A DNA stretch of 64,000 nucleotides from Polaromonas sp. UBA4122 (GTDB taxonomy: Bacteria > Pseudomonadota > Gammaproteobacteria > Burkholderiales > Burkholderiaceae_C): positions 21,268 through 85,267 of the forward strand of contig NZ_DFWY01000078.1 in assembly GCF_002381615.1 (NCBI RefSeq). The letters are read 5' to 3'. The notes beneath the pieces were generated by a model. It saw only the letters and a list, made by a program, of their open reading frames with translations. It was not told where the DNA came from and made no database searches. Positions 3,741-53,572 of the stretch are shown here, piece after piece; positions within the stretch are counted from its first letter, which is position 1; every line of letters starts with the position of its first letter. A program made the position numbers and the translations under genes.

Positions 3741-3803
3741 GCTATTATTTCAGGAGCTTCTTGTGCCCGCGCTTATTGGGCTAGAGGCCTAATTTATCTA
3801 AAA
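3741..3803 (+). repeat. family A repeat, intergenic (downstream of orn)
   Basis: GCTAT-TATTTCA-GGAGC core plus tail TTCTTGTGCCCGCGCTTATTGGGCTAGAGGCCTAATTTATCTAAAA. Confidence 0.85.
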
Positions 3804-3813
3804 TTCCTGAGAC

Positions 3814-4377
3814 TCACTTCAAAAAGTGTTCCCGGTAGTGTTCAAGTTCGTCAATTGATTCATTCACGTCAGCCAGGGCGGTATGCTTTTGGCGCTTCTT
3901 GAAAGCGCTGTAAACCTCGGGCCGCCAGCGTTTGGCCAGTTCCTTGAAGGTGCTGACATCGACATTGCGGTAGTGAAAAAATGCTTCAAGTTTGGGCATG
4001 TACTTGACCAGAAAGCGCCGGTCCTGGCTGATGGTATTGCCGCACATCGGCGACGTGCCTTTAGGCAGGTACTGCGCGAGAAAGACCAGCAACTGCTTTT
4101 CGGCTTCTTCTTCAGTTAACGTGCTGGCCTTGACCTTGTCGATCAGGCCGCTGCGGCTGTGGGTGCCCTTGTTCCACTTGTCCATCTGCCCCAGGAGCTC
4201 GTCGGACTGGTGGATGGCCAGTACCGGGCCTTCGATACGCGGCGTGAGTTGCGGGCCGGTGACGATCACGGCGATTTCGATCAGGCGTTCCTTTTCCGGG
4301 TCGAGACCGGTCATTTCGCAGTCCAGCCAGACAAGGTTCTGGTCTGATTTTTTGAGAGTGAATTCAATTTCAGGCAT
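3814..4377 (-). CDS. orn: oligoribonuclease
   Basis: [35 protein letters not shown] (DEDDh nuclease). Confidence 0.97.
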
Positions 4378-4409
4378 CTTGCGATTCTCGCTGATGACCT
4401 AAACTCCTG

Positions 4410-5702: not shown

Positions 5703-6019
5703 GCCATCCCATTCATCAAAACCGCCGGTCCCTGAGCGCTACGGAAATTGTCACGCAACTGAGCAAGCTCAACGGCGAGCAGGCACTGGGCTGGCGCCTG
5801 ATCGACGGCGCGCTGGAAAAAACCTTCACCTTCAAAAACTACCACGAGACCATTGGTTTCGTGAATGCAGTGGCTTTCATAGCCAATGCCGAAAACCATC
5901 ACCCGGATCTGGCGGTGAGCTACAACCAATGCACGGTTCGCTTCAACACGCACGATGTGAAGGGCATTTCAGTCAGTGACTTTTTCTGCGCGTCCAAGGT
6001 TGACGCCTTGCTGGTTTGA
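5699..6019 (+). CDS. phhB: pterin-4-alpha-carbinolamine dehydratase
   Basis: LEKTFTFKNY, NHHPDL, NTHDVKG motifs. Confidence 0.9.
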   Translation: MSHPIHQNRRSLSATEIVTQLSKLNGEQALGWRLIDGALEKTFTFKNYHETIGFVNAVAFIANAENHHPDLAVSYNQCTVRFNTHDVKGISVSDFFCASKVDALLV

Positions 6020-6987
6020 GCAAACTGGCCCAACAGGCACGCTCGGGCGCTGCGCCGGTGTTGGGCACCCAGCCTGGCCTGGTGGTGGCCAGTTTTGGCC
6101 GCCATGTTCTGGTTGAAACGGAAACCGGCCAGCGCGTGATCTGCCACCCGCGTGGCAAGAAAAACCAGGCCGTGGTCGGCGACCGCGTGCGGTGGCTGCC
6201 TTCGCAGGATGAAGGCACTCTCGAAAAAATAGAGGAGCGCAGCAACCTGTTTTACCGGCAGGACGAGATGCGCACCAAGTCGTTTGCCGCCAATCTAGAC
6301 CAAGTCCTCATCCTGATCGCCGCAGAGCCAGAGTTCTCGGAAAGCCAGTTGACACGGGCCCTGATTGCCGCTGAAGCAGAACGCATTACCCCCATCATTG
6401 CGCTAAATAAGAGCGACCTGACCGAGCCGTTTGGGCGCGCCTGGACCAAGCTGGCGCCCTACCGGACCATGGGCTACAAAATGCTGCCGCTTGCGATCAA
6501 GCCAAAAACCGCCACAGCCCTTCCCGACGAGGCACAGACCTCCGAGCTGCTGGACCTGATGCGGGGAAAAAAGACACTGGTACTGGGCCCTTCAGGGACC
6601 GGAAAAAGCAGCCTGACCAATCTGCTGGTGCCCCATGCGCGGGTGCTGACGGCCGAGATATCCCAAGCCCTGAACTCGGGCAAGCACACTACCACCAGCA
6701 CGACGCTGTACTGGGTGGACGATGCGAGGACCACCGCACTGATCGACTCGCCAGGCTTCCAGGAATTTGGCCTGAACCACATTGAGCCTATGCAGCTGGC
6801 CAACTACATGCCCGACTTCAAGGCCCATGCGCAGGACTGCAAGTTCTACAACTGCACGCACTTGCATGAGCCAGGCTGCGGTGTGATTTCAGAGGTTAAA
6901 TCGACTGCTAGCCCAAGCAGCATAAGCGCAAGCCGCTATCGTTTGTATAGCGAGCTGTTTGCCGAGCTGTCGCAGACCCGGTACTGA
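6016..6987 (+). CDS. rsgA: ribosome small subunit-dependent GTPase A
   Basis: Circularly permuted GTPase: NKSD, GPSGTGKSS, GKHTTT, DSPG; Zn finger CKFYNCTHLHEPGC. Confidence 0.96.
   Translation: MSKLAQQARSGAAPVLGTQPGLVVASFGRHVLVETETGQRVICHPRGKKNQAVVGDRVRWLPSQDEGTLEKIEERSNLFYRQDEMRTKSFAANLDQVLILIAAEPEFSESQLTRALIAAEAERITPIIALNKSDLTEPFGRAWTKLAPYRTMGYKMLPLAIKPKTATALPDEAQTSELLDLMRGKKTLVLGPSGTGKSSLTNLLVPHARVLTAEISQALNSGKHTTTSTTLYWVDDARTTALIDSPGFQEFGLNHIEPMQLANYMPDFKAHAQDCKFYNCTHLHEPGCGVISEVKSTASPSSISASRYRLYSELFAELSQTRY
6887..6951 (-). repeat. family A repeat inside rsgA 3' end
   Basis: Reverse complement reads GCTAT-ACAAACG-ATAGC-GGCTTGCGCTTATGCTGCTTGGGCTAGCAGTCGATTTAACCTCTGAAA; translated as ISEVKSTASPSSISASRYRLYS. 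Confidence 0.8.
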
Positions 6988-7054
6988 AAACCATCGGAAG
7001 TACGGGAAAGCACGTGGTGAAGCGCTGAGGCGCAGGCCAGCCACCTGGGAATGC

Positions 7055-8897: not shown

Positions 8898-8929
8898 AGC
8901 TTAGTACCGCAACTCAGAAATAAAGAAAC

Positions 8930-12554: not shown

Positions 12555-12709
12555 GCCCCCACGCTTGTCGCTTCGCGTACTGCGCTGCCCCCCGAGGGGG
12601 CTGTGCTTGCTTGGGGCTGCCCTGCGCGGCGCACTTCGGCCCCCACGCTTGTCGCTTCGCGTACTGCGCTGCCCCCCGAGGGGGCTGTGCTTGCTTGGGG
12701 CTGCCCTGC
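12555..12709 (+). repeat. family B repeat, two identical 71-bp copies (12555-12625, 12639-12709)
   Basis: GCCCCCACGCTTGTCGCTTCGCGTACTGCGCTGCCCCCCGAGGGGGCTGTGCTTGCTTGGGGCTGCCCTGC twice with a 13-bp spacer, between convergent genes. Confidence 0.95.
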
Positions 12710-12740
12710 CGAAAATTGCAGTGCCTTTGCAGGCTGTGAC

Positions 12741-14593: not shown

Positions 14594-14664
14594 GTAGGGC
14601 CGCCCCAAGGAAAAGACGCCCCATCGGGGGGCAGCGCAGTATGCGAAGGGACAAGCGTGGGGGC
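14594..14664 (-). repeat. family B repeat, intergenic
   Basis: Reverse complement GCCCCCACGCTTGTCCCTTCGCATACTGCGCTGCCCCCCGATGGGGCGTCTTTTCCTTGGGGCGGCCCTA. Confidence 0.88.
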
Positions 14665-15050: not shown

Positions 15051-15477
15051 TCATACAGGTTGCCCGACTAGCAGCAGCACCAGGGTCAGCAGCACCAGCG
15101 AATGCACAGAGACCAGCGTCAACAGCGTGACCAGCCCCGCGGGCCCGTATATCAAACCGATCAGTGCGATGCCAATCATCACTGTGTTGGAGTAGGTATT
15201 GGCCAGCAGCGCGGCGGTTAAAGCCTTGCACCAGCAAGGTACCGGTAAACAGGATGCCGACAGCCAGGAAATAAGCCACCACGGGCTTGAAGTCGAGTCG
15301 CTCGATACGCACCCGGCTCATGGTGCGAAAAAGCAGGGCAGGCGCGAGCAGCAAAAAAACCAGGTTTTAGAGGTATTTAATGGCCTGCGCCCTTATCCAG
15401 CCTGTGCGACCAGCTATAAAACCTGTAGCAATCAACAAAACAACCCGGAGCAGCGACACAAAAACAAGCGGGTTCAT
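15051..15477 (-). pseudogene. AEC-family (auxin efflux carrier) transporter pseudogene
   Basis: MNPLVFVSLLRVVLLIATGFIAGRTGWIRAQAIKYL*NLVFLLLAPALLFRTMS...; in-frame TAA at codon 37, frameshift near 15205 (continues ANTYSNTVMIGIALIGLIYG), 3' half missing. Confidence 0.8.
15365..15429 (-). repeat. family A repeat inside AEC pseudogene
   Basis: Reverse complement GCTAC-AGGTTTT-ATAGC-TGGTCGCACAGGCTGGATAAGGGCGCAGGCCATTAAATACCTCTAAAA. Confidence 0.7.
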
Positions 15478-15591
15478 GGCGCAATCTTAGCGCCCGTTCC
15501 CAACGCCCCGAGCGCCAATATTTTTTTGCAAAACAGGGCATAAACTTGGCCTTCATCGTTTTTGAAAAACCTGTTCCAGGCGCACCTCACC

Positions 15592-16593
15592 ATGACCAAT
15601 CCCACCATTGCCACGCCGGCCCCGGCCACCCGCCGGCCTTCCCACCTGCGCACCCTTAGCTACTGCGGCCTAGCCCCCGGGACACGCCTGCTGGTGCTGG
15701 GCGCGGTGCATGGCAATGAAGTGTGCGGCACGCGCGCCATTACGCAGCTCCTGGCAGAACTCGACAGCGGCGAGCTGGCCGTGGAGCGCGGCACAGTGAC
15801 TTTTGTGCCCATCACCAACCCGCTGGCCTACCAGCTCAAACAACGCACCGGCGAGCGCAACCTCAACCGCAACATGGCGCCCAGTGCGATTCCGCAGGAT
15901 TTCGAAGGCCGCATCGCCAACATGCTGTGCCCCTTACTCGAATCGCACGACGCGCTGCTGGACCTGCACTCCTTCCATACCGGCGGTGCCCCATTCGTGA
16001 TGATTGGCCCGCAAAACAACAGCGGCGAGCTAGAGCCCTTTGCCCGGGCGGCCGAAGAAATGCAGCTGGCCCTCCACACCGGGCCGCACCGCATTGTGGA
16101 AGGCTGGCTGGACACCTATGCGCGGGGCGTACAACGACGCGCCGCAGCACCCCTCACCGCGGGAAACAGCCGCGCACAAACCCTGGTGACCGACCCCAAC
16201 TACGGCGTGGGAACGACCGAATACATGCGCTCACGCGGCGGCTATGCGGTGACGCTGGAATGTGGCCAGCACGACGATCCTCAGGCGGTGCAGGTGGCAC
16301 GCCATGCCATTCTGCAAACACTGGCTTTGCTGGGTATCTCCTCGTTGCCGTTGGCACCGGTGCAGACGGACAGAGAAATCCTGCGCCTGGTCGACGTGAC
16401 GGACCGCGAGCATGCGGGCGACAGGTTCCGCCGCGAATGGCGCAGTTTTGACGCCGTGAAAACCGGCGAAGTGATTGGCGTTCGTCACAGCGGCGCAGAG
16501 GTCAAGGCCCCTGCAGACGGGTTTGTGGTGTTTCCCAATCCGCGCGCCGAAGTGGCGCAGGAGTGGTTTTATTTTGCCCAGCGCCGAGCCTGA
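15592..16593 (+). CDS. succinylglutamate desuccinylase/aspartoacylase (M14) family protein
   Basis: GAVHGNE, RNLNR, LDLHS, TLECGQH. Confidence 0.9.
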   Translation: MTNPTIATPAPATRRPSHLRTLSYCGLAPGTRLLVLGAVHGNEVCGTRAITQLLAELDSGELAVERGTVTFVPITNPLAYQLKQRTGERNLNRNMAPSAIPQDFEGRIANMLCPLLESHDALLDLHSFHTGGAPFVMIGPQNNSGELEPFARAAEEMQLALHTGPHRIVEGWLDTYARGVQRRAAAPLTAGNSRAQTLVTDPNYGVGTTEYMRSRGGYAVTLECGQHDDPQAVQVARHAILQTLALLGISSLPLAPVQTDREILRLVDVTDREHAGDRFRREWRSFDAVKTGEVIGVRHSGAEVKAPADGFVVFPNPRAEVAQEWFYFAQRRA

Positions 16594-18268: not shown

Positions 18269-19465
18269 ATGAAAGCCAAATTCAACTGGGAAGACCCATT
18301 TTTGCTGTCAGAGCAGCTCAGCGACGACGAACGCGCCATCGTCGAAGCCGCGCATGCCTTCTGCCAGGAAAAACTGCAGCCGCGCGTGCTGATGGCCGCC
18401 CGCCACGAAAAGTTTGACCGCGAGATCATGAACGAGTTCGGCGCCATGGGCTTTCTGGGCTCGACCATTGAAGGCTACGGCTGCACCGGCCTGAATTACG
18501 TGAGCTACGGCCTGGTGGCGCGCGAAGTGGAACGCGTGGACAGCGGCTACCGCAGCGCCATGAGCGTGCAGAGTTCGCTGGTCATGCACCCGATCAATGC
18601 CTACGGCAGCGAAGCCCAGCGCCTGAAGTACCTGCCCAAGCTGGCTACCGGCGAATGGGTCGGCTGCTTTGGCCTGACCGAGCCCAATCACGGCTCAGAC
18701 CCGGCCAGCATGATCACGCGCGCCAAGCCGGTGGACGGCGGATATACCCTCAATGGCGCCAAGATGTGGATCACCAACAGCCCGATTGCCGACGTGTTTG
18801 TGGTCTGGGCCAAACTGGCCGATGCCGATGGCAAGGTCGGCGGCCAGGAAGCGATTCGCGGCTTCATTCTTGAAAAAGGCATGAAGGGCCTGACCGCCCC
18901 CAAGATCGAAGGCAAGATGAGCCTGCGCGCGTCGATCACCGGCGAGATCGTGATGGACGATGTGTTTGTGCCCGAAGCCAATCTGTTGCCCAATGTGAGC
19001 GGCCTGAAGGGCCCGTTTGGCTGCCTGAACAAGGCCCGCTACGGCATCGCCTGGGGTGTGATGGGCGCTGCTGAAGACTGCTGGCACCGGGCCCGCCAGT
19101 ACACGCTGGACCGCGTGCAGTTTGGCCGCCCCCTGGCGCAAACCCAGCTGATTCAAAAGAAGCTCGCCGACATGCAGACCGAAATCACGCTGGGCCTGCA
19201 AGCCTGCCTGCGCGTGGGCCGCCTGATGGATGAGGGCAAGGACCAGCCCGAAATGATCTCGCTGATCAAGCGCAACAACTGCGGCAAGGCGCTCGACATT
19301 GCCCGCATGGCGCGCGACATGCACGGCGGCAACGGCATTCACGATGAATACCACGTGATCCGCCACATGATCAACCTGGAAACCGTCAATACCTACGAGG
19401 GCACGCATGATGTGCATGCACTGATCCTCGGCCGGGCGCAGACGGGGCTGCAGGCTTTTTTCTAA
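18269..19465 (+). CDS. gcdH: glutaryl-CoA dehydrogenase
   Basis: [52 protein letters not shown]. Confidence 0.95.
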
Positions 19466-19467
19466 CA

Positions 19468-19532
19468 TTTTTATAGTATTTTATGGCTATAGCCCAATAA
19501 CAACGGGCATAAGCAGCTATTTATTTTGTAGC
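19468..19532 (-). repeat. family A repeat, intergenic
   Basis: Reverse complement GCTAC-AAAATAA-ATAGC-TGCTTATGCCCGTTGTTATTGGGCTATAGCCATAAAATACTATAAAA. Confidence 0.88.
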
Positions 19533-19537
19533 AAAAC

Positions 19538-20314
19538 ATGGACTTTGGCACACTCAAACCCTTGCTGACCAGCCTGGCCTTGCCGCCCTTGGCGCCGCTG
19601 CTGCTGGCATTGCTGGGGCTGCTGCTGGCTTTCAAAAGAAGACGCGGCGGCCTCGCGCTGGCGGCGCTCTCACTGGTTCTGCTCTGGCTTCTCAGTTGCC
19701 ATGGCATAGCCGTGTGGCTGGCGCGCAATGCACTGCCGCAGTTTGCACCGACCTCCGCAGCACAACTTGAAACCAGCCAAGTGCAGGCCATCGTCGTACT
19801 CGGCGGCGGCCTGCTGCCCGAGGCACCCGAATACGGCCAGTCCCAGCCTCGCGCCGCTACGGCGGCCCGGCTGCGTTATGGCATTGCGCTGGCGCGGCAA
19901 TCGGGTTTGCCCGTGGCCTTTACCGGTGGCGTGGGCTGGGCCGCCAATGGCGCGCAGGCAGCCTCCGAAGCCGAGGTGGCCGCTCGCGTGGCGCAGCAAG
20001 ACTACGGCGTGGCACTGCGCTGGCTGGAAGCGCAGTCGCGCGACACCTCGGGCAATGCGCGCCTGCTGACACCGCTGCTTCAGCGTGATGGCGTGCAGCG
20101 CATTGCGCTGGTGACCGATGCGTGGCACATGCCGCGCGCTGTCGCCGCGTTTGAGCGGGCCGGCCTGACCGTGACGCCTGCGCCTACCGGTTTTATCCTT
20201 CCGGTCGAGCGTGATCTTCTGGAATGGCTGCCCTCTGCGAACGGCCTGCTGGCTTCGCGGGAGGTGCTGCGCGAGTGGCTGGCGCTCGCCGCAGGCCGCT
20301 TCATTCTCCTTTGA
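19538..20314 (+). CDS. YdcF/ElyC (DUF218) family protein
   Basis: IVVLGGG, SRDTSGNA, LVTDAWHMPRA. Confidence 0.9.
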   Translation: MDFGTLKPLLTSLALPPLAPLLLALLGLLLAFKRRRGGLALAALSLVLLWLLSCHGIAVWLARNALPQFAPTSAAQLETSQVQAIVVLGGGLLPEAPEYGQSQPRAATAARLRYGIALARQSGLPVAFTGGVGWAANGAQAASEAEVAARVAQQDYGVALRWLEAQSRDTSGNARLLTPLLQRDGVQRIALVTDAWHMPRAVAAFERAGLTVTPAPTGFILPVERDLLEWLPSANGLLASREVLREWLALAAGRFILL

Positions 20315-22373: not shown

Positions 22374-25300
22374 ATGTGGTTCACGCAGGTCAGCCTCAAG
22401 AATCCGGTGTTTGCCACCATGGTCATGCTGGCCATCGTGGTGCTCGGACTATTCTCCTACCAGCGCATGCAGGTGGACCAGTTTCCCAACATCGACTTAC
22501 CGGTGGTGGTGATCACGGCCGATTACCCCGGCGCTTCGCCCGAGATCGTTGAAAGCGAAGTCACCAAGAAGATTGAAGAAGGCGTCAATTCGATTGCCGG
22601 TATCAATGCCCTGACCTCGCGCAGCTACCAAGGCCAGGCTATCGTCATCATCGAGTTTCAGCTCTATATCGACGGGCGCAAGGCGGCAGAAGATGTGCGC
22701 GAAAAGATTGCCGCGATCCGGCCCAGCTTTCGCGACGAGGTGAAAGAGCCGCGCGTCTTGCGCTTTGATCCGGCAAGCCGCGCCATCTGGTCGGTCGCCG
22801 TGTTGCCGGCCCCCACGCTTGCCACCAAGGAAGGCGGAGCAGTGCAACAAGGCGCGGCCAGTCCATCCGCAGTGGAGCTGACCAACTGGGCCGACCAGGT
22901 GCTGAAAAAACGCCTTGAAAATGTCCGCGGCGCGGGCTCGGTCACGCTGGTCGGCGGCACCAAGCGAGAGATCAACATCTACCTCAATCCGCAAGCCCTG
23001 GAATCGGTCGGCATCACGGCCGACCAGGTGGTCAATGCGGTGCGCAACGAGAACCAGGACTTGCCGGTGGGCGCGATCCGCTCGCTGACACAGGAGCGCG
23101 TGGTCAAGATCGATGCACGCATGAAGCGCCCCGAAGACTTTGGCAAGATCATTGTGGCGCGCAAAGGGCTGGCTACTGGTAGCGGTGGCAGTGCGCCCAT
23201 CACGGTTAGCCAGGTCGCACGTATCGCCGATGGCGCCCAGGAACTCGACAGCCTGGCGCTTTACAACGGCCAGCGCACCTTGCTGCTGACCGTGCAAAAA
23301 GCCCAGGACGAAAACACCATCGGTGTGGTGGACGGACTGAACAAGGCCGTCGCCGAGATGCAGCCGCTACTGCCTCCCGGCGCACGGCTTGAGCTGATTA
23401 CCGACGGTTCGCGCCCGATTCGCGTGGCGGTTGAGAACGTGCGCCGCACGCTGATCGAAGGCGGGTTGCTGACGGTGTTGATCGTGTTCCTGTTTCTCAA
23501 TTCATGGCGCTCCACGGTGATTACCGGGCTGACGCTGCCGATTTCGATCATCGGCACCTTCCTCTTCATGAATTTATTTGGCTTCACCATCAACATGATC
23601 ACGCTGATGGCCCTGTCGTTGTGCGTGGGCCTGCTGATTGACGATGCGATTGTGGTGCGCGAGAACATTGTGCGACACGTACAGATGGGCAAAACGCCCT
23701 ACCAGGCCTCACTGGACGGCACGCAGGAGATCGGCCTGGCTGTGCTGGCCACGAGCTTTTCGATCGTCGCGGTTTTCCTGCCCGTTGGCTTCATGGGCGG
23801 CATCATCGGCAAGTTTTTTCACGAATTCGGCATCACCATTGTGGCGGCCGTGCTGCTCTCGATGTTCGTGAGCTTCACGCTGGACCCGATGCTGTCCAGC
23901 CTCTGGCACGACCCGGCCATTGAAGCGCATGGCAAGCATCATGCGCCGGTAACGTTTTACGATAAAACCATTGGCCGCGTCACCGGCTGGTTTGCCCGCG
24001 CGACCGACTCTCTGATCGACAGTTACCAGGGTATTTTGCGCTGGTCGCTGGCTCACAAACTGGCCACGCTAGCGCTGGCCGTGGTGATTTTTTCGATCAG
24101 CATTGTCATGGTGCCGTTGCTGGGCACCGAGTTTGTCCCCAAGGCCGACTTCTCGGAAACCACGCTCAACTTTTACACACCTGTGGGTTCCTCGCTCGAA
24201 ACCACCGAAGCCAAGGCCCGCCAGGTTGAAGCCATCGTGCGCGAGTTTCCCGAGGTGAAGTACACCCTGGCCACCCTCAACACTGGCAACGCGCAGGGCA
24301 AGATGTACGCCAGCCTGTATGTGCGCCTGGTGGACCGCAAGGCGCGCACGCGCAGTGTGGACGACATGTCGGGCGTGCTGCGCGAGCGGCTCAAACAGGT
24401 GCCGGGCATCACCGTCACCCACGTCGGCCTGCTCGATGCCGTGGGCGGCAACAAGCAGATCGAATTTTCGCTGCTGGGGCCGGACTTTAAGGAACTCGAG
24501 CGCCTGACGCGCCTCATCACGAAAAAAATCCAGGGCATTCCCGGGCTGGTGGACCTGGACTCCAGCGTCAAAGCCGACCAGCCGGTGATTGAAGTGGATG
24601 TGCGGCGCGATGCCGCGTCTGATCTTGGGCTGTCGGTGGCGCAGATTGCCGCTTCGCTGCGCACCCTGGTCGCAGGGCAGACCGTGGGCAACTGGCGCGC
24701 ACCCGACGACCAGACCTACGATGTGAATGTGCGCCTCGCGCCCGAAGCGCGCAACACACCGCAGGACCTGGAGCGCTTGCCTTTTACCAGCAGCGCCCTG
24801 GGCAGCAACCCCGATGGCTCCGCGCGCATCGTGCGGCTCAGCCAGGTGGCAAGCGTGAAGGAATCCACCGGTCCCAACCAGATCAACCGGCGCGACCTGA
24901 CCCGCGAGGTGGCCATCAACGGCAATGTCTACAGCCGCTCGGCCGGCGAAGTGTCCAACGACATCAAGGCAGCGCTGGACGGCTTCAATTTTCCACCGGG
25001 CTACAGCTATCAATTCAGCGGCTCCACCAAGAACATGGCGGAATCGTTTGGCTATGCCGTCTCGGCGCTGGTGATGGCCATTTTATTCATCTACATGATT
25101 CTGGCGAGCCAGTTCAAAAGCTTTCTGCAGCCCATGGCGCTGATGACCTCGTTGCCGCTGACTCTGATTGGGGTGGTGCTGGCCTTGCTGCTGTTCCGCT
25201 CGACGCTGTCGATATTCTCCATCATCGGGGTGGTCATGCTGATGGGCTTGGTCACCAAGAACGCCATTTTGCTGATCGACTTTGCCATCCGCATGCGCGA

Positions 25301-32180: not shown

Positions 32181-33857
32181 ATGACGACTGAAACCGCTCC
32201 CCTCGCCGATAGCGACTGCTACCTCGCCCTGAAGGCGCGGGACGCACGCTTTGACGGCAGCTTTTTTACCGGCGTGACCTCCACCGGCATTTACTGCCGG
32301 CCGGTCTGCAGCGTCAAAACCCCCAAGCGTGAAAACTGCCGCTTTTTCCGTCATGCGGCGCAAGCCGAGCAGGCTGGTTTTCGCCCCTGCCTGCGCTGCC
32401 GGCCCGAGCTGGCGCCGCATTCGGTGGTGTGGTCTATCCAGGACGCGTCTTACATCCTGGCGCACCAGGCCGCCCGCCTGCTCGATGAGCCCGAGGGCTG
32501 GGCCGACGCCGCGCCCTCGGTCGACAAGCTGTCCGCACGGCTGGGCGTGAGCGACCGCCATATGCGGCGGATTTTCGAGGCACAGTTTGGGGTGTCGCCC
32601 ATGCAGTACCTGCAGACACGGCGGCTGCTGACTGCCAAGCAATTGCTGGCCGACACGACTATGCCGATTACACAAGTCGCCCTGATCAGCGGCTACGCCA
32701 GCGTTCGGCGCTTCAATGCCGCGTTCGTGGCGCACTACAAACTCAACCCGACGCAATTGCGGCGCCAGGGCGCTGACCGTTCAGGCGATAACCTCACCAT
32801 CCGGCTCGGCTACCGCCCGCCTTACGACATCGCGGCCCTGCTTGGATTTTTCAGCAAGCGATGCATCAATGCTATTGAATTTATAGCTACCGATACCCAT
32901 CAACCGGCCATTGGAAGGACATTACGTGTTGAATCTGGCGGCAAAGTTCAGGCCGGCTGGTTGCTGGCCAGTTTTGACGAAGCACGTTCCCAACTGGTGC
33001 TGCGTGTCAGCGACTCCCTGCTTGAAGTGTTGCCACTGGTGATCCGCCGGGTGCGTGCGATGTTCGATCTGGATGCCGACCCGGCCGCCATCAACAGCGT
33101 GCTGCATGCCAGCTTTCCCGGCGGCGACGGGCTGCGCGTGCCCGGAGCGCTGGATGGCTATGAGCTGGCCGTTCGCGCAGTGCTGGGCCAGCAGATCACG
33201 GTGGCAGCGGCCCGCACCCTGGCGCAGCGCATGGTGGACCGCTTTGGCGAGCCGCTAGCTACACCCTGGCCGCAGCTGACTCGCCTGTTTCCCGCACCTG
33301 CAGTGCTGGCCGCTGCCAGCGGCGACGCGCTGGGCCAGCTTGGCATTGTCAAGCAGCGCCAGGCCGCCATTGTCGGGATTGCCCAGGCCGTGGCGGAAAA
33401 GCGCCTGCAATTGCATGGCGGCGCCGATGTCAATGCCACCCTTGCCATGCTGAAAGAGCTGCCCGGCGTCGGCGACTGGACGGCGCAGTACATTGCCATG
33501 CGTGCCCTGCGCTGGCCCGATGCATTTCCGGCTGGCGATGTCGCGCTGCACAAGGCGCTGGGCGTGCAGGCGCTGAAAAATCCGGCCAGGCAAGCCGAGC
33601 TGGCATCGGCCGCCTGGAAACCGTGGCGCAGCTATGCCGTCATTCGCGCCTGGAGCGGGACGCTGGGCGCCGGGCCCGCCACACCGCCCACAATAGCGCC
33701 AACCGCAGCAACATTGGCGACATCAGCAGTTACTACTGAATTGATAGCTACTCGAACCCGTCCTGCAAGGTCCAACGCTATAAAACACTCCATAAAATCG
33801 CAAAAAACAGGCGCCGAACAAAGAAGAGACACTCAAGGTGAGCACCATGAAATTTGA
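32181..33857 (+). CDS. alkA: Ada metal-binding/AraC HTH fused to AlkA DNA-3-methyladenine glycosylase
   Basis: GIYCRPVC..CLRCRP Zn site, AraC HTH, VLGQQITV, LPGVGDWTA, DAFPAGD. Confidence 0.93.
   Translation: MTTETAPLADSDCYLALKARDARFDGSFFTGVTSTGIYCRPVCSVKTPKRENCRFFRHAAQAEQAGFRPCLRCRPELAPHSVVWSIQDASYILAHQAARLLDEPEGWADAAPSVDKLSARLGVSDRHMRRIFEAQFGVSPMQYLQTRRLLTAKQLLADTTMPITQVALISGYASVRRFNAAFVAHYKLNPTQLRRQGADRSGDNLTIRLGYRPPYDIAALLGFFSKRCINAIEFIATDTHQPAIGRTLRVESGGKVQAGWLLASFDEARSQLVLRVSDSLLEVLPLVIRRVRAMFDLDADPAAINSVLHASFPGGDGLRVPGALDGYELAVRAVLGQQITVAAARTLAQRMVDRFGEPLATPWPQLTRLFPAPAVLAAASGDALGQLGIVKQRQAAIVGIAQAVAEKRLQLHGGADVNATLAMLKELPGVGDWTAQYIAMRALRWPDAFPAGDVALHKALGVQALKNPARQAELASAAWKPWRSYAVIRAWSGTLGAGPATPPTIAPTAATLATSAVTTELIATRTRPARSNAIKHSIKSQKTGAEQRRDTQGEHHEI
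32871..32925 (+). repeat. family A repeat (degenerate tail) inside alkA
   Basis: GCTAT-TGAATTT-ATAGC-TACCGATACCCATC...; encodes AIEFIATDTHQ. Confidence 0.65.
33732..33797 (+). repeat. family A repeat in alkA C-terminal tail
   Basis: ACTAC-TGAATTG-ATAGC-TACTCGAACCCGTCCTGCAAGGTCCAACGCTATAAAACACTCCATAAAA; encodes TTELIATRTRPARSNAIKHSIK. Confidence 0.75.
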
Positions 33858-34458
33858 CACCCCCATCGTCCAGACCACTTTCCAAAGTCCGCTGGGGACC
33901 ATGATCATCGCGGCCACGGCCAAAGGCCTGGCCGGGCTCTGGTTTGAAGGTCAGCGACACCTGCCGCCGGAGTTGGGAGGGCCAGACCAAAGTGCGCCGC
34001 TAAGGGCCGCCCCGAGCAAACACAGCCCACTCGGGGGGCAGCGTATTACACGAAGTGAAAAGCGGGGGGGCCATACCCTCTGGCCCGCCGATCCCGAACA
34101 CCCGGTGCTCAAAAATGTCAGCCAGCAACTCGCCGAGTATTTCGCGGGGCAGCGCAACCGTTTTGAGGTGCCGCTGGATCTGGCGTGCGGCACGGCCTTC
34201 CAGCAATCGGTGTGGCAGGCGCTGCTGGCCATCCCGTATGGCCGCACCGCGAGCTACGGTGAAGTGAGTCGTCGCATTGGCAAACCGACCGCCGTCAGGG
34301 CCGTGGGCGCCGCGGTCGGGCGCAACCCGGTCAGCATCATCGTGCCGTGTCATCGCGTGATGGGCGCAAACGGTTCGCTCACCGGCTACGCCGGCGGGCT
34401 GGATCGCAAAACCGCCTTGCTCAAGCTTGAAGGTGCACTTCAGGAGACCCTGCTTTGA
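33847..34458 (+). CDS. ogt: methylated-DNA--protein-cysteine methyltransferase with repeat-derived insert
   Basis: SPLG, GTAFQQSVW, RAVGAAVGRNP, IVPCHRV, GYAGG. Confidence 0.95.
   Translation: MKFDTPIVQTTFQSPLGTMIIAATAKGLAGLWFEGQRHLPPELGGPDQSAPLRAAPSKHSPLGGQRITRSEKRGGHTLWPADPEHPVLKNVSQQLAEYFAGQRNRFEVPLDLACGTAFQQSVWQALLAIPYGRTASYGEVSRRIGKPTAVRAVGAAVGRNPVSIIVPCHRVMGANGSLTGYAGGLDRKTALLKLEGALQETLL
33994..34070 (-). repeat. family B repeat in-frame inside ogt
   Basis: Reverse complement GCCCCCCGCTTTTCACTTCGTGTAATACGCTGCCCCCCGAGTGGGCTGTGTTTGCTCGGGGCGGCCCTTAGCGGCGC; encodes APLRAAPSKHSPLGGQRITRSEKRGG. Confidence 0.9.
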
Positions 34459-44263: not shown

Positions 44264-45058
44264 TCAATAGGTACCGGGATACGTCCCGCCATCAGCCAAC
44301 ACGTTCTGACCAGTCATGTAACCGGCCTGCATGCTGCACAGGAAAGCACAAATGGCGCCGAACTCTTCGGGTGTGCCAAAACGCCGGGCGGGGATTTTTT
44401 TGCGGCGCGCATCCATGACGGCATCAAGCGACTGTCCGGTTTTTTGAGCTGCGCCGCTCATGGTGACTCTCAGGCGATCCGTATCAAACGCGCCCGGCAG
44501 CAAGTTGTTGAGCGTAACCCCCTGAGAAGCGAGCTTGCTGCGCGCCACACCGGCGACAAAGCCCGTCAGGCCGCTGCGCGCGCCGTTGCTCAGACCCAGA
44601 ATGTCGATCGGTGCCTTGACGGCGCTGGAGGTGATGTTGACGACACGGCCAAAACCGCGTGCCGCCATGCCGTCCACGGTGGCCTTGATCAGTTCGATCG
44701 GTGTCAGCATGTTGGCGTCCAACGCCTTGATCCACGCGTCCCGGTCCCAGTCGCGGAAATCGCCAGGCGGCGGGCCGCCCGCGTTGGTGACCACGATGTC
44801 GAAGTCCTTGCGCACCGCAAAGACGGCGGCGCGGCCTTCCACCGTGGTGATGTCCGCCGAAACAAATTGGACGCTAGCGCTTGCGGGACGGGCGTTGTCA
44901 GCTATCAATTTCGCAGCAGCAGCGTGTAAAACCTCGGCGCCCCGCGCCACGATCAGCACATGGACGCCCTCGCGCACCAGCGCCTGCGCGCAGCCGAGGC
45001 CCAACCCTTTGCTGGCACCGCACACCAGCGCCCATTTTCCGGCAATACCTAAATCCAT
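44264..45058 (-). CDS. short-chain dehydrogenase/reductase
   Basis: GASKGLG, NAGGPPPG, LSNGARSG, YMTGQNV; ATG at 45058. Confidence 0.93.
   Translation of the reverse strand: MDLGIAGKWALVCGASKGLGLGCAQALVREGVHVLIVARGAEVLHAAAAKLIADNARPASASVQFVSADITTVEGRAAVFAVRKDFDIVVTNAGGPPPGDFRDWDRDAWIKALDANMLTPIELIKATVDGMAARGFGRVVNITSSAVKAPIDILGLSNGARSGLTGFVAGVARSKLASQGVTLNNLLPGAFDTDRLRVTMSGAAQKTGQSLDAVMDARRKKIPARRFGTPEEFGAICAFLCSMQAGYMTGQNVLADGGTYPGTY
44864..44917 (-). repeat. family A repeat inside SDR
   Basis: Reverse complement GCTGC-GAAATTG-ATAGC-TGACAACGCCCGTCCCGCAAGCGCTAGCGTCCAATTT; encodes AAKLIADNARPASASVQF. Confidence 0.75.
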
Positions 45059-45112: not shown

Positions 45113-45282
45113 GAGGGGCCGCCCCTGGAAAAATTAATGCCCTAGGGGGGCAGCATATTACATGCAGTGAAAAGCGTAGGGGCGAGCGAACGCAGCGCCA
45201 GGCCGCCCCAAGCAAGTTCAGACCCCTCGGGAGGCATCCTTCGACAAGCTCAGGACGAACGGAGACACGAGAGCGTGGGGGC
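45113..45282 (-). repeat. two family B repeats (45113-45182, 45192-45282), the second with a nested REP-like hairpin (45237-45262)
   Basis: Both retain CCCC(T/C)ACGCT...GCC(C/T)CCC.AGGG...GGGGCGGCC; the second contains TCCTTCGACAAGCTCAGGACGAACGG. Confidence 0.85.
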
Positions 45283-45290: not shown

Positions 45291-46232
45291 CTAACGGCCC
45301 GCTCTGGTAAACACAAAAATTCCGGCGATCACCAGCACTGTACCCGCGGCCAGCCAGGCGGTGAAAGGTTCGCCCAAAATAACCACCCCCATCAGGATGG
45401 TGGACATGGGGCCCACCATGCCGGTCTGCGCGGCCAGGCTGGCACCAATACGCTCGATCGCCATCATCACCATCAGCACGGGCGCGGCCGTGCACAAGGT
45501 GGCGTTGAGAACGGACAGCCAGATCACCTCAGGCGCGACTAGAGCAGCGCTCAGGGGCCTGAGCACCACGAACTGCAGGATGCAGAGCAGGCAAGCAACG
45601 GTAGTTGCCAGTCCCACCAGCCGCAAGGAGCCCAGACGCCCGACCATTTCGCCGCTGTAAACCAGGTAAACCGCATAGCTGACCGCGCTCAGGAAGACCA
45701 GCAGCGCACCCCAGGCCGCATCGGCGCCTTGCAGCGTGATCTCGTGGCCAAATACCAGCACCACCCCGCAGTAGCTGATGGCCATGCCGATGATCTGCCG
45801 CGCCCTCACGCGTCGCTGGTACAGCCCCAGCCCCAGCAGCAAGACCACCGTGGGATTGAGGTACAGAATCAGGCGCTCCAGCGAGGCGCTGATGTATGCC
45901 AACCCGGCAAAGTCCAGAAAGCTGGCCAGGTAGTAGCCGGTGAATCCGAGCCAGAGCACCCCCAGCCAGTCTTTGCGCGTGAGAGGTGCTTTGCCCCGGC
46001 TGGCCCACCAGGCCATCATGGCAAAAAACGGCAGCGCAAACAGCATGCGGTACATGATCAGCGTGACGGCATCGACGCCGTAGCGGTAAGCCAGCTTGAC
46101 GATGATCGCCTTGCCACTGAACGCAATCGCCCCGAAGGTGGCGAGCAGCAAGCCTGGCGCTATGCTTTTTGTAGCTGCTTGTTCCCGTCCCTCCTGGGCT
46201 ATAGGTACTTTTTGTTCTGAACTATTGCTCAA
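45291..46232 (-). CDS. EamA/DMT-family transporter
   Basis: FSGKAIIVKLAY, GYYLASFLDF, LGEPFT. Confidence 0.92.
   Translation of the reverse strand: MSNSSEQKVPIAQEGREQAATKSIAPGLLLATFGAIAFSGKAIIVKLAYRYGVDAVTLIMYRMLFALPFFAMMAWWASRGKAPLTRKDWLGVLWLGFTGYYLASFLDFAGLAYISASLERLILYLNPTVVLLLGLGLYQRRVRARQIIGMAISYCGVVLVFGHEITLQGADAAWGALLVFLSAVSYAVYLVYSGEMVGRLGSLRLVGLATTVACLLCILQFVVLRPLSAALVAPEVIWLSVLNATLCTAAPVLMVMMAIERIGASLAAQTGMVGPMSTILMGVVILGEPFTAWLAAGTVLVIAGIFVFTRAGR
46159..46221 (+). repeat. family A repeat forming the EamA N-terminus
   Basis: GCTAT-GCTTTTT-GTAGC-TGCTTGTTCCCGTCCCTCCTGGGCTATAGGTACTTTTTGTTCTGAA; encodes SEQKVPIAQEGREQAATKSIA. Confidence 0.85.
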
Positions 46233-49668: not shown

Positions 49669-49677
49669 TTTTTTTCC

Positions 49678-50166: not shown

Positions 50167-50318
50167 GGTTTGTCTCCTCTATATAAAGAATGAATTGGTC
50201 GATTGTGCATTCAATCACCGGCGCAGGACATGTGGCTTTCACCTATACGGCCCGGCGGTGCCAGGAAGCCGTAAGTCCGGCCGCAACTTCGGCGGGAGGG
50301 CCAAAAGGCGAAAGCACC

Positions 50319-52133
50319 TCAGGAAAGCGGGGGGGTGGACGCCAGGATTTCTTCGATGGTGGTCAGGCCTTCAGCCACTTTCAGGGCACCCCCCAGTCGC
50401 AGCGGGCGCATCCCTTCCGTGATTGCCTGTTGACGCAGCGCATCAATATTGGGTTCTTTCGAAACCTTTTCCTTGAAGCCTTCGGTCACCGTCAGCAACT
50501 CGTACAAGCCCATCCGTCCCCTGAAGCCGGTCATGCGGCAATCCACACAGCCCACAGGTTTGTAGGGCCGGTAGCCGCCGCTGATTTGCCAGGGTTTGAC
50601 CAGTTCCGCGAGGGTTTCCCGCGAGGCACTGTCGTCCGGCTCACGGCACTGGCTGCACAGGGTGCGTACCAGCCGCTGGGCCAGCACGCCCAGCAAGGTG
50701 GCGTTGATCAGGTAGGACGGCACGCCCAGCTCCATCAGGCGGGATACGGCAGAGGGCGCATCGTTGGTGTGCAGCGTGCTGAAGACCAGGTGGCCCGTCA
50801 GCGCGGCCTGCACAGCCATTTCAGCGGTCGGCAGGTCACGTATCTCGCCCACCATGATGATGTCCGGGTCTTGCCGCATCAAAGCGCGCAGCCCTTCGGG
50901 AAAACCAAAATCCAGATGCGGCTGAACCTGCGTCTGGTTGAACGCGGGCTCGATCATCTCGATCGGGTCTTCGATCGTGTTGACATTGACCTCTTCGGTA
51001 GCGAGCCGTTTCAGTGTGGAATACAGCGTGGTGGTCTTGCCCGAACCGGTCGGGCCGGTCACCAGCACAATGCCGTAGGGGCGTTTGACCAGTTGCTCCC
51101 AGCGCTCGGCGTCGTGTTGCGAAAAGCCCAGCGCATCGAGATTTTTAACCGTGGTGTCTGGGTCAAAAATACGCATGACCATTTTTTCGCCAAATGCAGT
51201 GGGCAGGGTGGACAAGCGCATTTCCACCTCATCGCCGCGCGGGTTGCGTGTCTTGATGCGGCCGTCCTGCGGGCGGCGTTTTTCAACCACATCCATACGG
51301 CCCAGCAGCTTGATGCGCGCCGTCATGGCGCCCAGCACGCCCATGGGCAACTGGTACACCGGGTGCAGCACGCCGTCGATGCGAAAACGGATCACGCCCT
51401 GCTCGCGCCGCGGCTCCAGATGAATATCGCTGGCGCGCTGGTCAAAGGCATATTGCCAGAGCCAGTCCACCACCTGCACCACCCCCTGGTCATTGGCGTC
51501 GAGCTGCTTGTTGCTCTTGTTCAGTTCAACCAGTTGCTCAAAGCTGGCCGAGCCAGACGTTCCGCCCGCCTTGAGCGCCGCCTTGACGGATTTGGCCAGC
51601 GCAAAAAATTCCGCCGTGAACTTGGTGATTTCCAGCGGATTGGCCACCACCAGACGCACGCTGCGTTTGGACTGGCGCTCGATCTCCGACACCCAGTCCG
51701 TGACGAACGGCTCGGACGTCGCAATCACCACCTCGCTAGGTGTGACCTTCACCGGCAACACCTTGTGCCGCTCGGCATATACGGCCGACATGGTGTCTGC
51801 CACCTTGCCCACGTCCACCTTGAGGGGGTCAATCCTCAAATAGCTGAGGCCTGCGCGGCCGGCCAGCCACTGGGCAATGGTTTCGATATCCAGCGGTTTG
51901 CCATCGGCCACACGTGTCATGCTGACACTGGCCAGCCTGACCAGGGGATGCTGCGCGCTTTGCACTTGCGAACAGCGGGCAAGGGTGCGCTGCGCCTCGG
52001 CGCTGCTGATGACGCCGTCTTCACTGAGCCATTCGACCAGGCGACGCCAGTCCAGCGGGCCGGCATGGGGCGCGGAGGAGACCTTTTTAGCCTGATGATC
52101 CCGTGGGGTTTTGGGGGGCATGACTGCACTCAT
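50319..52133 (-). CDS. GspE/PulE/PilB-family ATPase
   Basis: ASDIHLEP, RRPQDGRI, GPTGSGKTTT, EDPIE, RQDPDIIMVGEIRD, TLHTN. Confidence 0.95.
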   Translation of the reverse strand: MSAVMPPKTPRDHQAKKVSSAPHAGPLDWRRLVEWLSEDGVISSAEAQRTLARCSQVQSAQHPLVRLASVSMTRVADGKPLDIETIAQWLAGRAGLSYLRIDPLKVDVGKVADTMSAVYAERHKVLPVKVTPSEVVIATSEPFVTDWVSEIERQSKRSVRLVVANPLEITKFTAEFFALAKSVKAALKAGGTSGSASFEQLVELNKSNKQLDANDQGVVQVVDWLWQYAFDQRASDIHLEPRREQGVIRFRIDGVLHPVYQLPMGVLGAMTARIKLLGRMDVVEKRRPQDGRIKTRNPRGDEVEMRLSTLPTAFGEKMVMRIFDPDTTVKNLDALGFSQHDAERWEQLVKRPYGIVLVTGPTGSGKTTTLYSTLKRLATEEVNVNTIEDPIEMIEPAFNQTQVQPHLDFGFPEGLRALMRQDPDIIMVGEIRDLPTAEMAVQAALTGHLVFSTLHTNDAPSAVSRLMELGVPSYLINATLLGVLAQRLVRTLCSQCREPDDSASRETLAELVKPWQISGGYRPYKPVGCVDCRMTGFRGRMGLYELLTVTEGFKEKVSKEPNIDALRQQAITEGMRPLRLGGALKVAEGLTTIEEILASTPPLS

Positions 52134-52211
52134 GAGTCGCAATGTACCGCATCCACAGCACGAGCCCGTGTCGCCGTGCCGCAATAACGCCTTGCCGCCA
52201 TCACGCGCGCA

Positions 52212-52979
52212 TCAGGCCACCGGCCCGAAAAGCCGCAACCACTTTTTGGCGGGCAGGTCCCAGCGCGATTCAATCACGTCGGCCTGCAGCAAGAGGTCGG
52301 CCCGCTCGGGGCGCGTGGGTTCGCGCTGGGCCATCACCACCGTGTTGCCCTCACGCGTCGGCCGGAAAGCCCAGACCGACTCGGGACCGAAGGCCTCGGC
52401 CATCCTGGTAAGCGACTCGACATAGCTGGAATCGCGACCAAAGAGGTTCACCGTCATCACCCCATCGTCGGTCAGCAGGCTCCGACAGTGGGTGTAAAAA
52501 TCAGCGTCGTCCAGCACCGGCGCAGCGGCTTCTTGGTCATACAGGTCAACGTGCAGCAGATCAACCGTGCCCTGATGCTCAGGTTTCTGTATCTCCGAGC
52601 CCGCATCGGCTTCAATGACATGCAGGCGCAAATCGTCGCGCGGCAATTTGAACCACAGCCGACAGGCCGTAACTACCTGCGGGTTGATCTCGACCGCCGT
52701 GGTTTTCATGCGCAGCTTTTTGTAGCAGAACTTGGTCAGCGCCGCCGAGCCCAGGCCCAGTTGCATCGCATGCTTTTTGGCCACCGTCTGCGCATCCACG
52801 AACAGCAGCCCCACCATCATGCGCTGCACATACTCCAGCTCAATGTCATAGGGCGCATCGCGCAGCATGGAGCCTTGCACCCATTCGGTGCCCAAGTGCA
52901 GAAAGCGCACCTCGCCGTAGTCTGAAAAATTGACTTCGGGGAGCTCTGCAGTGGCTTTAACCGTCTCTTTTTTCGACAT
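52212..52979 (-). CDS. spermidine synthase-like SAM-dependent transferase
   Basis: LHLGTEWVQG, LGLGSAALTK, VEINP, VDLYD. Confidence 0.88.
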   Translation of the reverse strand: MSKKETVKATAELPEVNFSDYGEVRFLHLGTEWVQGSMLRDAPYDIELEYVQRMMVGLLFVDAQTVAKKHAMQLGLGSAALTKFCYKKLRMKTTAVEINPQVVTACRLWFKLPRDDLRLHVIEADAGSEIQKPEHQGTVDLLHVDLYDQEAAAPVLDDADFYTHCRSLLTDDGVMTVNLFGRDSSYVESLTRMAEAFGPESVWAFRPTREGNTVVMAQREPTRPERADLLLQADVIESRWDLPAKKWLRLFGPVA

Positions 52980-53572
52980 TAAATCAATCCATGTTTTTCA
53001 AAAACCTCGCGCCAGGCAGCGAGTTTGCGCTCAAAACTCCACGACGCATTCGCCGGACTGGTTGAAGGCAACTTGTGAAATTGGACCCCCACGCTTTTCA
53101 CTTCGTGTAATGCGCTGCCCCCCGAGGGGGCGGTGCTTGCTTGGGGCGGCCCGGCGCGGCGCACGGCGGCTCCCGTCCCCTCTAATGCAGCCCTGACATG
53201 GAGCGAATGCTTGAAGCTCTCCCCGCCGTTATGGGCAATGGCCTGCAATGCAGGGCAAAGCCGCTGTATCTCTGCAAAATCGTTCACCACCGGATGGCGG
53301 ATATGACTGTCCAGGCTGCCTTCGCGTTCGCACGCCACATACACGTCCCACAGACCCAGCTGCTTGGACAACAGCCAATCACTACGAATTTTATAGCTGC
53401 TCACGCCCGTATCTATTGGGCTAGAAGGCCAAATGGCTTGCAGAATCTTCCAGAAATGGTTTTGCGGATGGCCATAATACTGCCGCGCCGCGAGCGACGC
53501 CACGCTCGGAAAACTACCCAGTATCAGCAGGCGCGTGCGGCTGGAAACCAGCGGCGGCAAACCGATCAGCAC
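52979..53572 (-). CDS. DNA-deoxyinosine/MUG-like glycosylase (UDG superfamily) carrying two repeat-derived segments
   Basis: LILGSFPS, YYGHPQNHFW, LWDV...SLDS, LPSTSPANA. Confidence 0.9.
   Translation of the reverse strand: MLIGLPPLVSSRTRLLILGSFPSVASLAARQYYGHPQNHFWKILQAIWPSSPIDTGVSSYKIRSDWLLSKQLGLWDVYVACEREGSLDSHIRHPVVNDFAEIQRLCPALQAIAHNGGESFKHSLHVRAALEGTGAAVRRAGPPQASTAPSGGSALHEVKSVGVQFHKLPSTSPANASWSFERKLAAWREVFEKHGLI
53086..53162 (+). repeat. family B repeat in-frame inside MUG-like gene
   Basis: CCCCCACGCTTTTCACTTCGTGTAATGCGCTGCCCCCCGAGGGGGCGGTGCTTGCTTGGGGCGGCCCGGCGCGGCGC; encodes VRRAGPPQASTAPSGGSALHEVKSVG. Confidence 0.92.
53381..53446 (+). repeat. family A repeat in-frame inside MUG-like gene
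   Basis: ACTAC-GAATTTT-ATAGC-TGCTCACGCCCGTATCTATTGGGCTAGAAGGCCAAAT; encodes AIWPSSPIDTGVSSYKIRS. Confidence 0.85.

Follow-up and report, generated by a model that had tools for sequence, protein, structure and literature searches.

A dispersed 65–70-bp repeat of Polaromonas conserved at the DNA level in coding and intergenic sequence

The uptake signal sequences (USS) of Pasteurellaceae and the DNA uptake sequences (DUS) of Neisseriaceae have a core of 9–12 bp (at most about 30 bp in the extended form) and a density of roughly one per kb. Rickettsia palindromic elements (RPEs; Ogata et al.) are hairpin-forming insertions of 100–150 bp that add their full length to the protein. Miniature inverted-repeat transposable elements (MITEs), such as Correia/NEMIS, are short, abundant, non-coding repeats near or within genes, and repetitive extragenic palindromes and their mosaics (REP/BIME, REPIN) are stable palindromes of 20–40 bp, often in inverted pairs and tied to the RAYT gene that they flank, with GTAG- or CGTC-tagged palindromes among those described (PMC3733652). 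Here we describe Family A, a dispersed repeat recognised in a stretch of 64,000 nucleotides (the window, contig NZ_DFWY01000078.1, positions 21,268–85,267) of a Polaromonas genome from soil or permafrost metagenomes. The assembly holding the window (G000) comprises 4.17 Mb in 172 contigs, and the window lies on its contig C24. Family A shares features with each of MITEs, REP/RAYT, RPEs and USS/DUS but does not pass as a member of any of these classes, and its DNA is conserved beyond what the encoded proteins require.

Like RPEs, Family A is dispersed and occurs in frame within intact, functional genes, in more than one reading frame (141 copies within coding sequences, CDSs) and at sites common to species. 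Unlike RPEs, it is 65–70 bp long and resides in a free-living soil host, it shows neither a stable hairpin nor any excess structure, it adds no residues in about half of the tested genes, and synonymous sites are held to its motif; only the copy in waaA and two of the 15 gene pairs compared with a more distant genus (G056, below) behave as an RPE would. With REP/BIME (REPIN), Family A shares hundreds of copies located just downstream of genes, in convergent and tandem spacers, some supplying stop codons and some intragenic, as well as long vertical persistence. However, it lacks a stable hairpin, its copies are mostly single, and its (A/G)TAG is not the terminal tag of a stem; moreover, 28% of the copies lie in CDSs and 14% over gene ends, and neighbouring copies are not preferentially inverted. 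The likeness to USS/DUS consists in overlay on coding sequence without insertions or deletions (indels) for about half of the genic copies, in both orientations being used, in shared or dialect forms and in scarcity on the two plasmids searched, uptake sequences being depleted in recently acquired DNA, whereas a span of 63–70 bp in place of a short core, a density of about one per 8 kb and the discrete 65-bp blocks formed by intergenic copies set Family A apart. Finally, it resembles MITEs in being a short, abundant, non-coding repeat near or within genes, but lacks both terminal inverted repeats and target-site duplications, the features of a described MITE that the initial annotation named, and no parent insertion sequence (IS) was seen, with no exhaustive IS search made.

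In the literature we met Family A only once, in a single line of a statistical survey of motifs (PMC5217627); two REP surveys make no mention of these taxa. The motif survey gives ATAGCT(N)22CAAAAG in P. naphthalenivorans CJ2 with 125 copies, located about 50 bp from gene ends; most are intergenic, 34 of them in convergent spacers, and 18 are intragenic. Judging from the two motifs, this is almost certainly the same family, given that 22 nucleotides after ATAGCT lands on the CTAGAG/CAAAAG position of Family A, where the CAAAAG variant is a minority form in G000. Only the motif pair is listed there, with no full element, coding overlay, cross-species conservation or proposed function.

Scanning G000 with a seed profile from nine window copies gave 462 copies, and the iterated profile gave 506. 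No match was obtained with the Family A profile in the reversed genome or in the genome shuffled in 100-bp blocks, and Family A is therefore real; the doubt raised in the initial annotation, that copies might be no commoner than in shuffled controls, does not apply. The repeat is about 65–70 bp long with no length variation, and column information is zero beyond a span of about 70 bp. Its register is fixed, since 98 copies align over 75 columns with no gap at all. The consensus, aaT-TGCTATTAATTTAATAGC-TGCTTGCGCCCGT-cctta(a/t)-TGGGCTAGAGGC-ctATTTTacTtaaAAAttt, is laid out as a 17-bp dyad head (GCTAT-N7-ATAGC), TGCTTGCGCCCGT, a 6-nt free loop, TGGGCTAGAGGC and then two A/T tracts, with the loop and portions of the tail varying freely. 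The 17-bp core with its invariant 7-nt spacer, as first described, is recovered as GCTAY-N7-RTAGC, the spacer being constant in length over the 98 gap-free copies and A/T-rich in sequence; the tail sequence was also correct as described, but its loop, given as 4–6 nt, is of fixed length. Conservation along the repeat is periodic: the information per column is autocorrelated most strongly at lags of 12 (0.44) and 24 (0.41). Two versions of the tail exist, ATTTT and AAAAT (columns 56–60 of alignment A1, e.g. window 3791–3796); they are mutual reverse complements and change as one block (columns 57–58 read TT in 298 copies and AA in 88), and the loop preceding TGGGC shows a few discrete variants.

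Window-only searches with nhmmer found a Family A copy at all 11 positions of the initial annotation, two of them weak (15379 and 32870). The copies are as follows:

3740–3802, plus strand: Family A copy (50.0 bits), intergenic between the minus-strand genes 1519–3396 and 3814–4377, 12 bp downstream of the stop codon of the latter.
6890–6952, minus strand: Family A copy (29.8 bits) in rsgA (6058–6987, plus strand), antisense, at about residues 277–300, after the zinc-finger motif.
15379–15430, minus strand: weak degenerate Family A copy (13.8 bits, E = 0.003), intergenic by gene calls (possibly in a pseudogene), upstream of gene 15562–16593.
19471–19533, minus strand: Family A copy (49.5 bits) filling the whole 72-bp spacer between an acyl-CoA dehydrogenase (ACAD) gene (18269–19465) and a DUF218 gene (19538–20314).
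28815–28877, plus strand: Family A copy (46.2 bits) in waaA/kdtA (28242–29624/29654, minus strand), antisense, encoding FFKEISAVAKAARAQAAINTVA between the two glycosyltransferase domains.
30080–30142, plus strand: Family A copy (41.0 bits) in a GT9 heptosyltransferase gene (waaC-like, 29621–30643, minus strand), antisense, encoding PNFGLKVPLAQEVRVQSAPEKIA in the inter-domain linker.
32870–32901, plus strand: weak partial Family A copy (13.5 bits) in an ada-alkA fusion (32181–33857, plus strand), sense, head palindrome only (model positions 1–32).
33731–33793, plus strand: Family A copy (22.5 bits) in the C-terminal tail of ada-alkA, sense, at about residues 517–538 of 558.
44856–44918, minus strand: Family A copy (35.9 bits) in an SDR gene (44264–45058, minus strand), sense, encoding AAAKLIADNARPASASVQFVSA.
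46158–46220, plus strand: Family A copy (33.6 bits) at the 5' edge of an EamA transporter gene, ambiguous between intergenic and N-terminal.
53380–53442, plus strand: Family A copy (44.6 bits) in a UDG-superfamily (family-6-like) glycosylase gene (52979–53572, minus strand), antisense, encoding QAIWPSSPIDTGVSSYKIRS.

Pfam supports the host genes in the window (RsgA_GTPase, Glycos_transf_N for WaaA, Glyco_transf_9, Ada-AlkA, SDR, EamA and the UDG-family glycosylase). Nine copies had been placed in CDSs or a pseudogene, a number corrected here to six in Pfam-supported CDSs (RsgA, WaaA, GT9, the C-terminal tail of Ada-AlkA, SDR and the UDG-family glycosylase). Outside this count, one weak copy also lies in Ada-AlkA, the copy at 46158 is ambiguous, those at 3740 and 19471 are intergenic, and that at 15379 is intergenic or possibly in a pseudogene. 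The Pfam domain AlkA_N spans the 32870 region without an insertion, and the HhH-GPD domain of Ada-AlkA ends at residue 483, ahead of the copy in its tail. The EamA gene is called at 45291–46151, and its open reading frame reaches 46232 if a long TTG start is used. A marginal match in a large RND transporter gene (22651–22682, E = 0.038, model positions 21–52) is probably a chance match or a decayed copy.

The constraint on the DNA of Family A goes beyond that imposed by the proteins. Among the orthologous copies in waaA, 181 of 251 free third-codon positions (72%) match the motif, against 24% expected from genome codon usage; the same test gave 182 of 252 (72%) against 23% expected for the GT9 copies and 497 of 740 (67%) against 37% for the glycosylase copies. 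The G+C content at third codon positions (GC3) is 0.37–0.46 in the copy segments of these three genes, compared to 0.75 genome-wide. Synonymous-site identity is about 0.57 in the rest of the three genes, which we judge to be close to saturation in view of the common codon bias, and reaches 0.57–0.68 inside the copies despite their rare codons. Per-column conservation is strongly correlated between intergenic and CDS copies (r = 0.94), while the mean score is lower in genic copies (31.4 against 38.8 bits in intergenic ones, p = 8e-9).

How the copies came to lie in genes was approached through the lengths of host genes and spacers in an element-free congener, G001 (0 matches in 1.36 Mb scanned). 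Across 32 syntenic gene pairs, the presence of one copy goes with a median excess in spacer length of 65.5 bp over G001, compared to +3 bp for 291 copy-less spacers. In genic copies, the net length change is exactly 0 in 24 of 46 orthologue pairs, with a median of 0 and none at +20 to +24 amino acids (aa). Nine equal-length pairs with unambiguous register display codon-for-codon homology through the copy, with a GC3 over 21 codons of 0.34 in G000 against 0.79 in G001 and a motif score of +44.5 bits against −68.6 bits. G001 alone cannot polarise this change, and therefore a deeper element-free genus, G056 (0 matches in 800 kb scanned), was compared. The 15 usable pairs gave a change of 0 in seven, +3 to +5 in three, +8 in one, +12 and +13 in two, and +20 and +23 aa in the remaining two; control windows in the same proteins showed no change in 47 of 60. 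Where the length is unchanged, the alignment of native residues continues across the copy, as with RAIELLAETG in one protein against AAIKLLADTG in the other. Homologues in the PDB agree: entry 2l3f has a native segment equivalent to that of the UDG-family glycosylase and only 3 aa shorter, the GT9 protein is longer by about 4 aa than E. coli WaaC (and by about 5 aa than proteins of other families), and the copies in RsgA and SDR add only 4 aa across the segment, relative to E. coli RsgA and to the 64%-identical Burkholderia SDR 5va8, respectively. Both modes therefore exist, with about half of the genic copies overlaying native codons, a minority being full-length insertions and the rest intermediate. 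The overlay copies sit in poorly conserved protein segments and use rare A/T-ending codons.

Relatives were scanned with a sequence-only covariance model, whose scoring cap makes counts in copy-rich genomes and genera lower bounds. Family A is abundant, up to this cap, in most Polaromonas species, whereas one subclade whose genomes are small (G001, G002, G007, G010, G013 and G020) has only 0–12 copies. Five of these element-poor genomes (G001, G002, G010, G013 and G020) measure 2.5–3.0 Mb and have ordinary GC-rich codons at the genic sites. Of the 150 genera of the Genome Taxonomy Database (GTDB) family, Comamonadaceae, 55 contain matches, about 35 of them at the cap, and Family A is abundant in about a third of the genera; none of 16 other families of the order has a match. 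The WaaA and GT9 copies are located at the same codons in 14 related species, and the glycosylase copy occupies the same site in some 40 Polaromonas loci, with weaker matches there in Rhodoferax, Albidiferax and Variovorax. The copy in the ACAD–DUF218 spacer is kept in seven element-rich Polaromonas species, while two element-poor species have a 12–35-bp spacer with no copy. The copies are thus old, vertically inherited and lost wholesale in some lineages. No presence/absence polymorphism was seen at four copies among strains about 99.5% identical (four runs), which are too close to inform, and metatranscriptomes contained only 5–6% of the sampled words, too few for use. Lineage-specific copies are present upstream of the ACAD gene in three species, where the upstream genes are non-syntenic with those of G000.

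The two plasmids searched, both large and from Comamonadaceae, carry few copies. BLAST of the consensus against plasmids and phages gave nothing at E ≤ 0.01, a search of low sensitivity for a 65-mer; relaxed to E ≤ 10 it matched three plasmids, of which two were then scanned with the model, giving two copies on the 353-kb pPNAP01 and one on the 305-kb pOS401. First-look candidates numbered 4 per 353-kb plasmid against 1807 per 4.5-Mb Polaromonas chromosome. The two copies on pPNAP01 of P. naphthalenivorans CJ2 (186066–186137 and 187421–187491) flank an ATPase gene between pglX and pglW in a BREX-2 defence locus.

Placement in G000 was analysed with CDS positions from a codon-usage gene caller (3677 genes, 80% coding), which under-calls somewhat. 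The intergenic class comprises 294 copies (58%), with 101 in convergent, 33 in divergent and 150 in tandem spacers. A further 71 copies (14%) overlap a gene end, including 54 at the 3' end that supply the stop codon of the gene, and 141 (28%) are wholly within CDSs, 66 in sense and 75 in antisense orientation. Intergenic copies lie at a median of 29–35 bp from a stop codon and 94–115 bp from a start codon, with either end facing the gene, and their orientation in tandem spacers is 69 against 81. The use of both orientations and several reading frames in CDSs, claimed from the window, holds genome-wide: all six frames are used, two consensus-open frames dominate with 56 and 53 copies, and the recurrent peptides A-I-x-x-I-A, Q-A-A-I and S-S-Y are reproduced. 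No strand or GC-skew bias was found, orientation agreeing with the skew in 184 of 383 copies, nor any regular spacing, the distances being Poisson-like with a coefficient of variation of 0.93 against 0.96 for random placement. Neighbouring copies have the same orientation in 214 cases and the opposite in 182, with only 17 pairs within 400 bp. A signal of chromosome-scale polarity or regular spacing was rejected given the skew-neutral orientation and Poisson-like spacing.

The palindromes of Family A are conserved as sequence, not as pairs. Compensatory pairing amounts to 78.3% of cells paired compared to 79.0% in shuffles, RNAalifold gave no consensus pairs, and mutual information among 414 copies shows no long-range component, with the top 25 pairs all 1–3 columns apart. 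A second candidate helix displayed only a marginal excess of pairing, and two hand-drawn structures gave no covariation above shuffles. The head stem is A/T-rich and weak, the second stem is only 4 bp long, and the consensus and the window copies, as single-strand DNA, fold no better than shuffled sequence; the z-scores are between −1.3 and +1.4 for eight of nine copies, and z = −4.6 for one relative's copy. With no stable fold, no covariation and unremarkable z-scores, a secondary-structure element was rejected.

From the DNA-level conservation, the overlay on native codons, the lack of structure and of transposon hallmarks and the taxonomic distribution, we give even chances to the reading that Family A is a Comamonadaceae-specific dispersed DNA recognition motif, actively maintained independent of strand, frame and context. 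Duplex DNA would be recognised by a conserved host protein or complex, possibly as a dimer that occupies the GCTAT-N7-ATAGC dyad and makes additional contacts at intervals of about 12 bp. Selection on this recognition, or a transmission bias acting on it, would preserve the copies and probably also generate them in situ. Such a dimeric protein on the dyad with phased contacts would be the simplest reader. That a protein binds, what kind of benefit or bias is at work, and in which direction the sequences changed (gain in situ or decay in relatives) are inferences. Copies could be installed either as inserted blocks in spacers, combined in genes with conversion or directional substitution of the existing sequence, or by insertion followed by trimming. 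Of the two explanations offered in the initial annotation, an RPE-like coding element agrees with the in-frame translation in intact genes in both orientations, but not with full-length addition in only 2 of 15 pairs or with the lack of excess folding and covariation; a genome-wide protein-binding site is favoured, though unproven, as it fits the synonymous-site conservation, the correlated coding and non-coding profiles and the absence of strand bias.

A bolder version appears possible, if rather doubtful. It holds that Family A is a genome-wide 'written' signal, a composite site of about 65 bp installed over existing sequence, essential coding sequence included, by templated short-patch conversion or directional substitution, and kept at synonymous sites over genus-to-family timescales by a Comamonadaceae-specific machine. 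Such a signal may mark the vertically inherited chromosome as distinct from plasmids, serving as a self-DNA, chromosome-organising or recombination/uptake signal.

Several observations weigh against a maintained recognition motif. The intergenic copies are discrete indels of about 65 bp, as an inserted element would give. In CDSs, all non-zero length changes relative to G056 are positive, two of the 15 equalling the full element, and therefore some addition of DNA is part of the process; the WaaA segment likewise is a real addition, making the protein +12 to +22 aa longer than in congeners and other families without it. Because G001 probably descends from an element-carrying ancestor, its zero-length result cannot distinguish gain from decay in place, and the comparison with G056 comprises only 15 usable pairs and assumes that this lineage never carried the element. 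The synonymous-site test used orthologues detected with the profile, an ascertainment bias, though a minor one within Polaromonas, in which almost every locus scores. Only about 66 columns underlie the 12-bp periodicity, and the depletion on plasmids was measured on two plasmids only.

The best-surviving alternative, although we consider it unlikely, is an old and almost inactive non-autonomous mobile element (REP- or RPE-like), which inserted as a block of some 65 bp, in most cases immediately downstream of genes, with genic copies being in-frame survivors trimmed by flanking deletions and the overlay reflecting trimming plus alignment noise in variable loops. It would account for the discrete +65-bp intergenic blocks relative to G001, including the 72-bp ACAD–DUF218 spacer that is wholly one element, and for genic length changes that are never negative and extend to +20 and +23 aa, and to +12 to +22 aa in WaaA. 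The copy number and location are also REP-like (30–35 bp from stops; 101 convergent against 33 divergent spacers), the 54 genes that take their stop codon from a copy have their parallel in REPs (PMC3733652), and lineage-specific copies occur in other species. However, the zero length change in seven of 15 (G056) and 24 of 46 (G001) pairs, with native residues aligning through the copy, is difficult to reconcile with insertion, and a dead element would not show synonymous sites that keep to the motif, in spite of codon bias, across genus-level divergence. Nor does Family A have the hallmarks of a transposon. No terminal inverted repeats were detected (best terminal inverted match 9/14) and no target-site duplication (best direct repeat 2 bp, in 40 copies against 25.5 expected among 344), in addition to the lack of hairpin stability and covariation. 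The absence of presence/absence polymorphism at the four copies and the rarity of copies on the two plasmids scanned also speak against mobility.

No cognate transposase was found either. No IS sharing the ends of Family A was seen in a search for Y1_Tnp, with no exhaustive IS search made. The only RAYT-like Y1 transposase gene of G000 (C79:26320–27018) is flanked by inverted repeats of GGGTCAGATTCCAATTA, not of Family A, and is present in 52 of 53 genomes, element-free ones included. A RAYT co-distributed with the repeat, which the initial annotation suggested looking for, was thus not found, the gene being present regardless of Family A and flanked by another repeat; a RAYT/REP link was rejected, as the Y1_Tnp matches are an IS200 with its own hairpins and the RAYT-like gene with its different repeat. 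The RAYT-like locus (C79:26250–27140, outside the window) encodes 232 aa with the motifs YPHHIIQRGNNR and HFHLL, and the GGGTCAGATTCCAATTA repeat, with about 10–30 copies in G000, is probably this gene's own REP family. An IS200-type tnpA (G000 C87:2000–2720, outside the window) with CCCCGGCTTTGCCGGGG hairpins at both ends adjoins the A/T tail of a Family A copy, and three of five Y1_Tnp loci have a copy less than 500 bp away; the A/T tail may be a preferred IS200 target.

A USS/DUS-like uptake signal, or another motif of biased transmission in which point changes accumulate by molecular drive with no benefit per site, is a more improbable explanation. It would predict the overlay on native codons in tolerant frames, about half without length change, as well as random placement with both orientations equally frequent, orthologous retention, and shared or dialect forms across genera, such as ATAGCT(N)22CAAAAG in P. 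naphthalenivorans (PMC5217627). The rarity on the two plasmids scanned is consistent with it, the helically phased A/T tracts in the tail recall the extended USS of Haemophilus, and wholesale loss in some lineages would follow from losing the uptake machinery. However, a fixed register of 63–70 bp is several times longer than any known uptake sequence, the density of about one per 8 kb is about ten times lower, and the extra 65-bp intergenic blocks are not explained by drive on point mutations. In addition, our literature search found no sequence-biased natural competence in Comamonadaceae, and no receptor candidate is known. An RNA-level element acting after transcription (a terminator, mRNA stabiliser or small RNA) is very improbable, for although intergenic copies lie 30–35 bp downstream of stops and are enriched between convergent genes, the copies show no preferred orientation with respect to the gene that flanks or hosts them, Rfam 15 gave 0 matches at the gathering score in the 64-kb window, no stable fold or compensatory changes occur, the tail lacks the hairpin-plus-T-run form of an intrinsic terminator, and 28% of the copies are inside CDSs in either orientation.

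Should Family A be a maintained recognition motif, about 500 long sequence-specific sites per genome would be kept in a free-living bacterial family at the cost of rare codons and changed residues in housekeeping proteins such as RsgA, WaaA, WaaC and DNA glycosylases; such maintenance would therefore call for a strong DNA-level force, selection or drive, and for a reader protein. The system is amenable to testing, with a defined 65–70-bp probe, with lineages that lost all copies as natural knock-outs for finding the reader gene, and with cultured relatives available (among them P. naphthalenivorans CJ2, Polaromonas sp. JS666 and Rhodoferax). The system is relevant to the superposition of non-coding signals on coding sequence and to the ways in which dispersed repeats can arise without transposition. 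Family A also explains recurrent AT-rich patches and peptides like A-Q-A-A-I-x-x-I-A in Comamonadaceae proteins, which could mislead annotation and analyses of selection.

A second, GC-rich repeat of about 84 bp is found in the window at 53086–53174, 12556–12728, 14596–14664, 34003–34071, 45115–45236 and 59802–59890. It is probably the beta-proteobacterial BRE of Hot et al. (PMC3110155), a family distinct from Family A. One copy of this BRE-like repeat lies in frame in the same glycosylase gene that hosts Family A, where it adds about 32 aa (AAVRRAGPPQASTAPSGGSALHEVKSVG...), and other Polaromonas orthologues have clean empty sites (165 against 197 aa), so that, unlike Family A, it behaves as a true RPE-like insertion.

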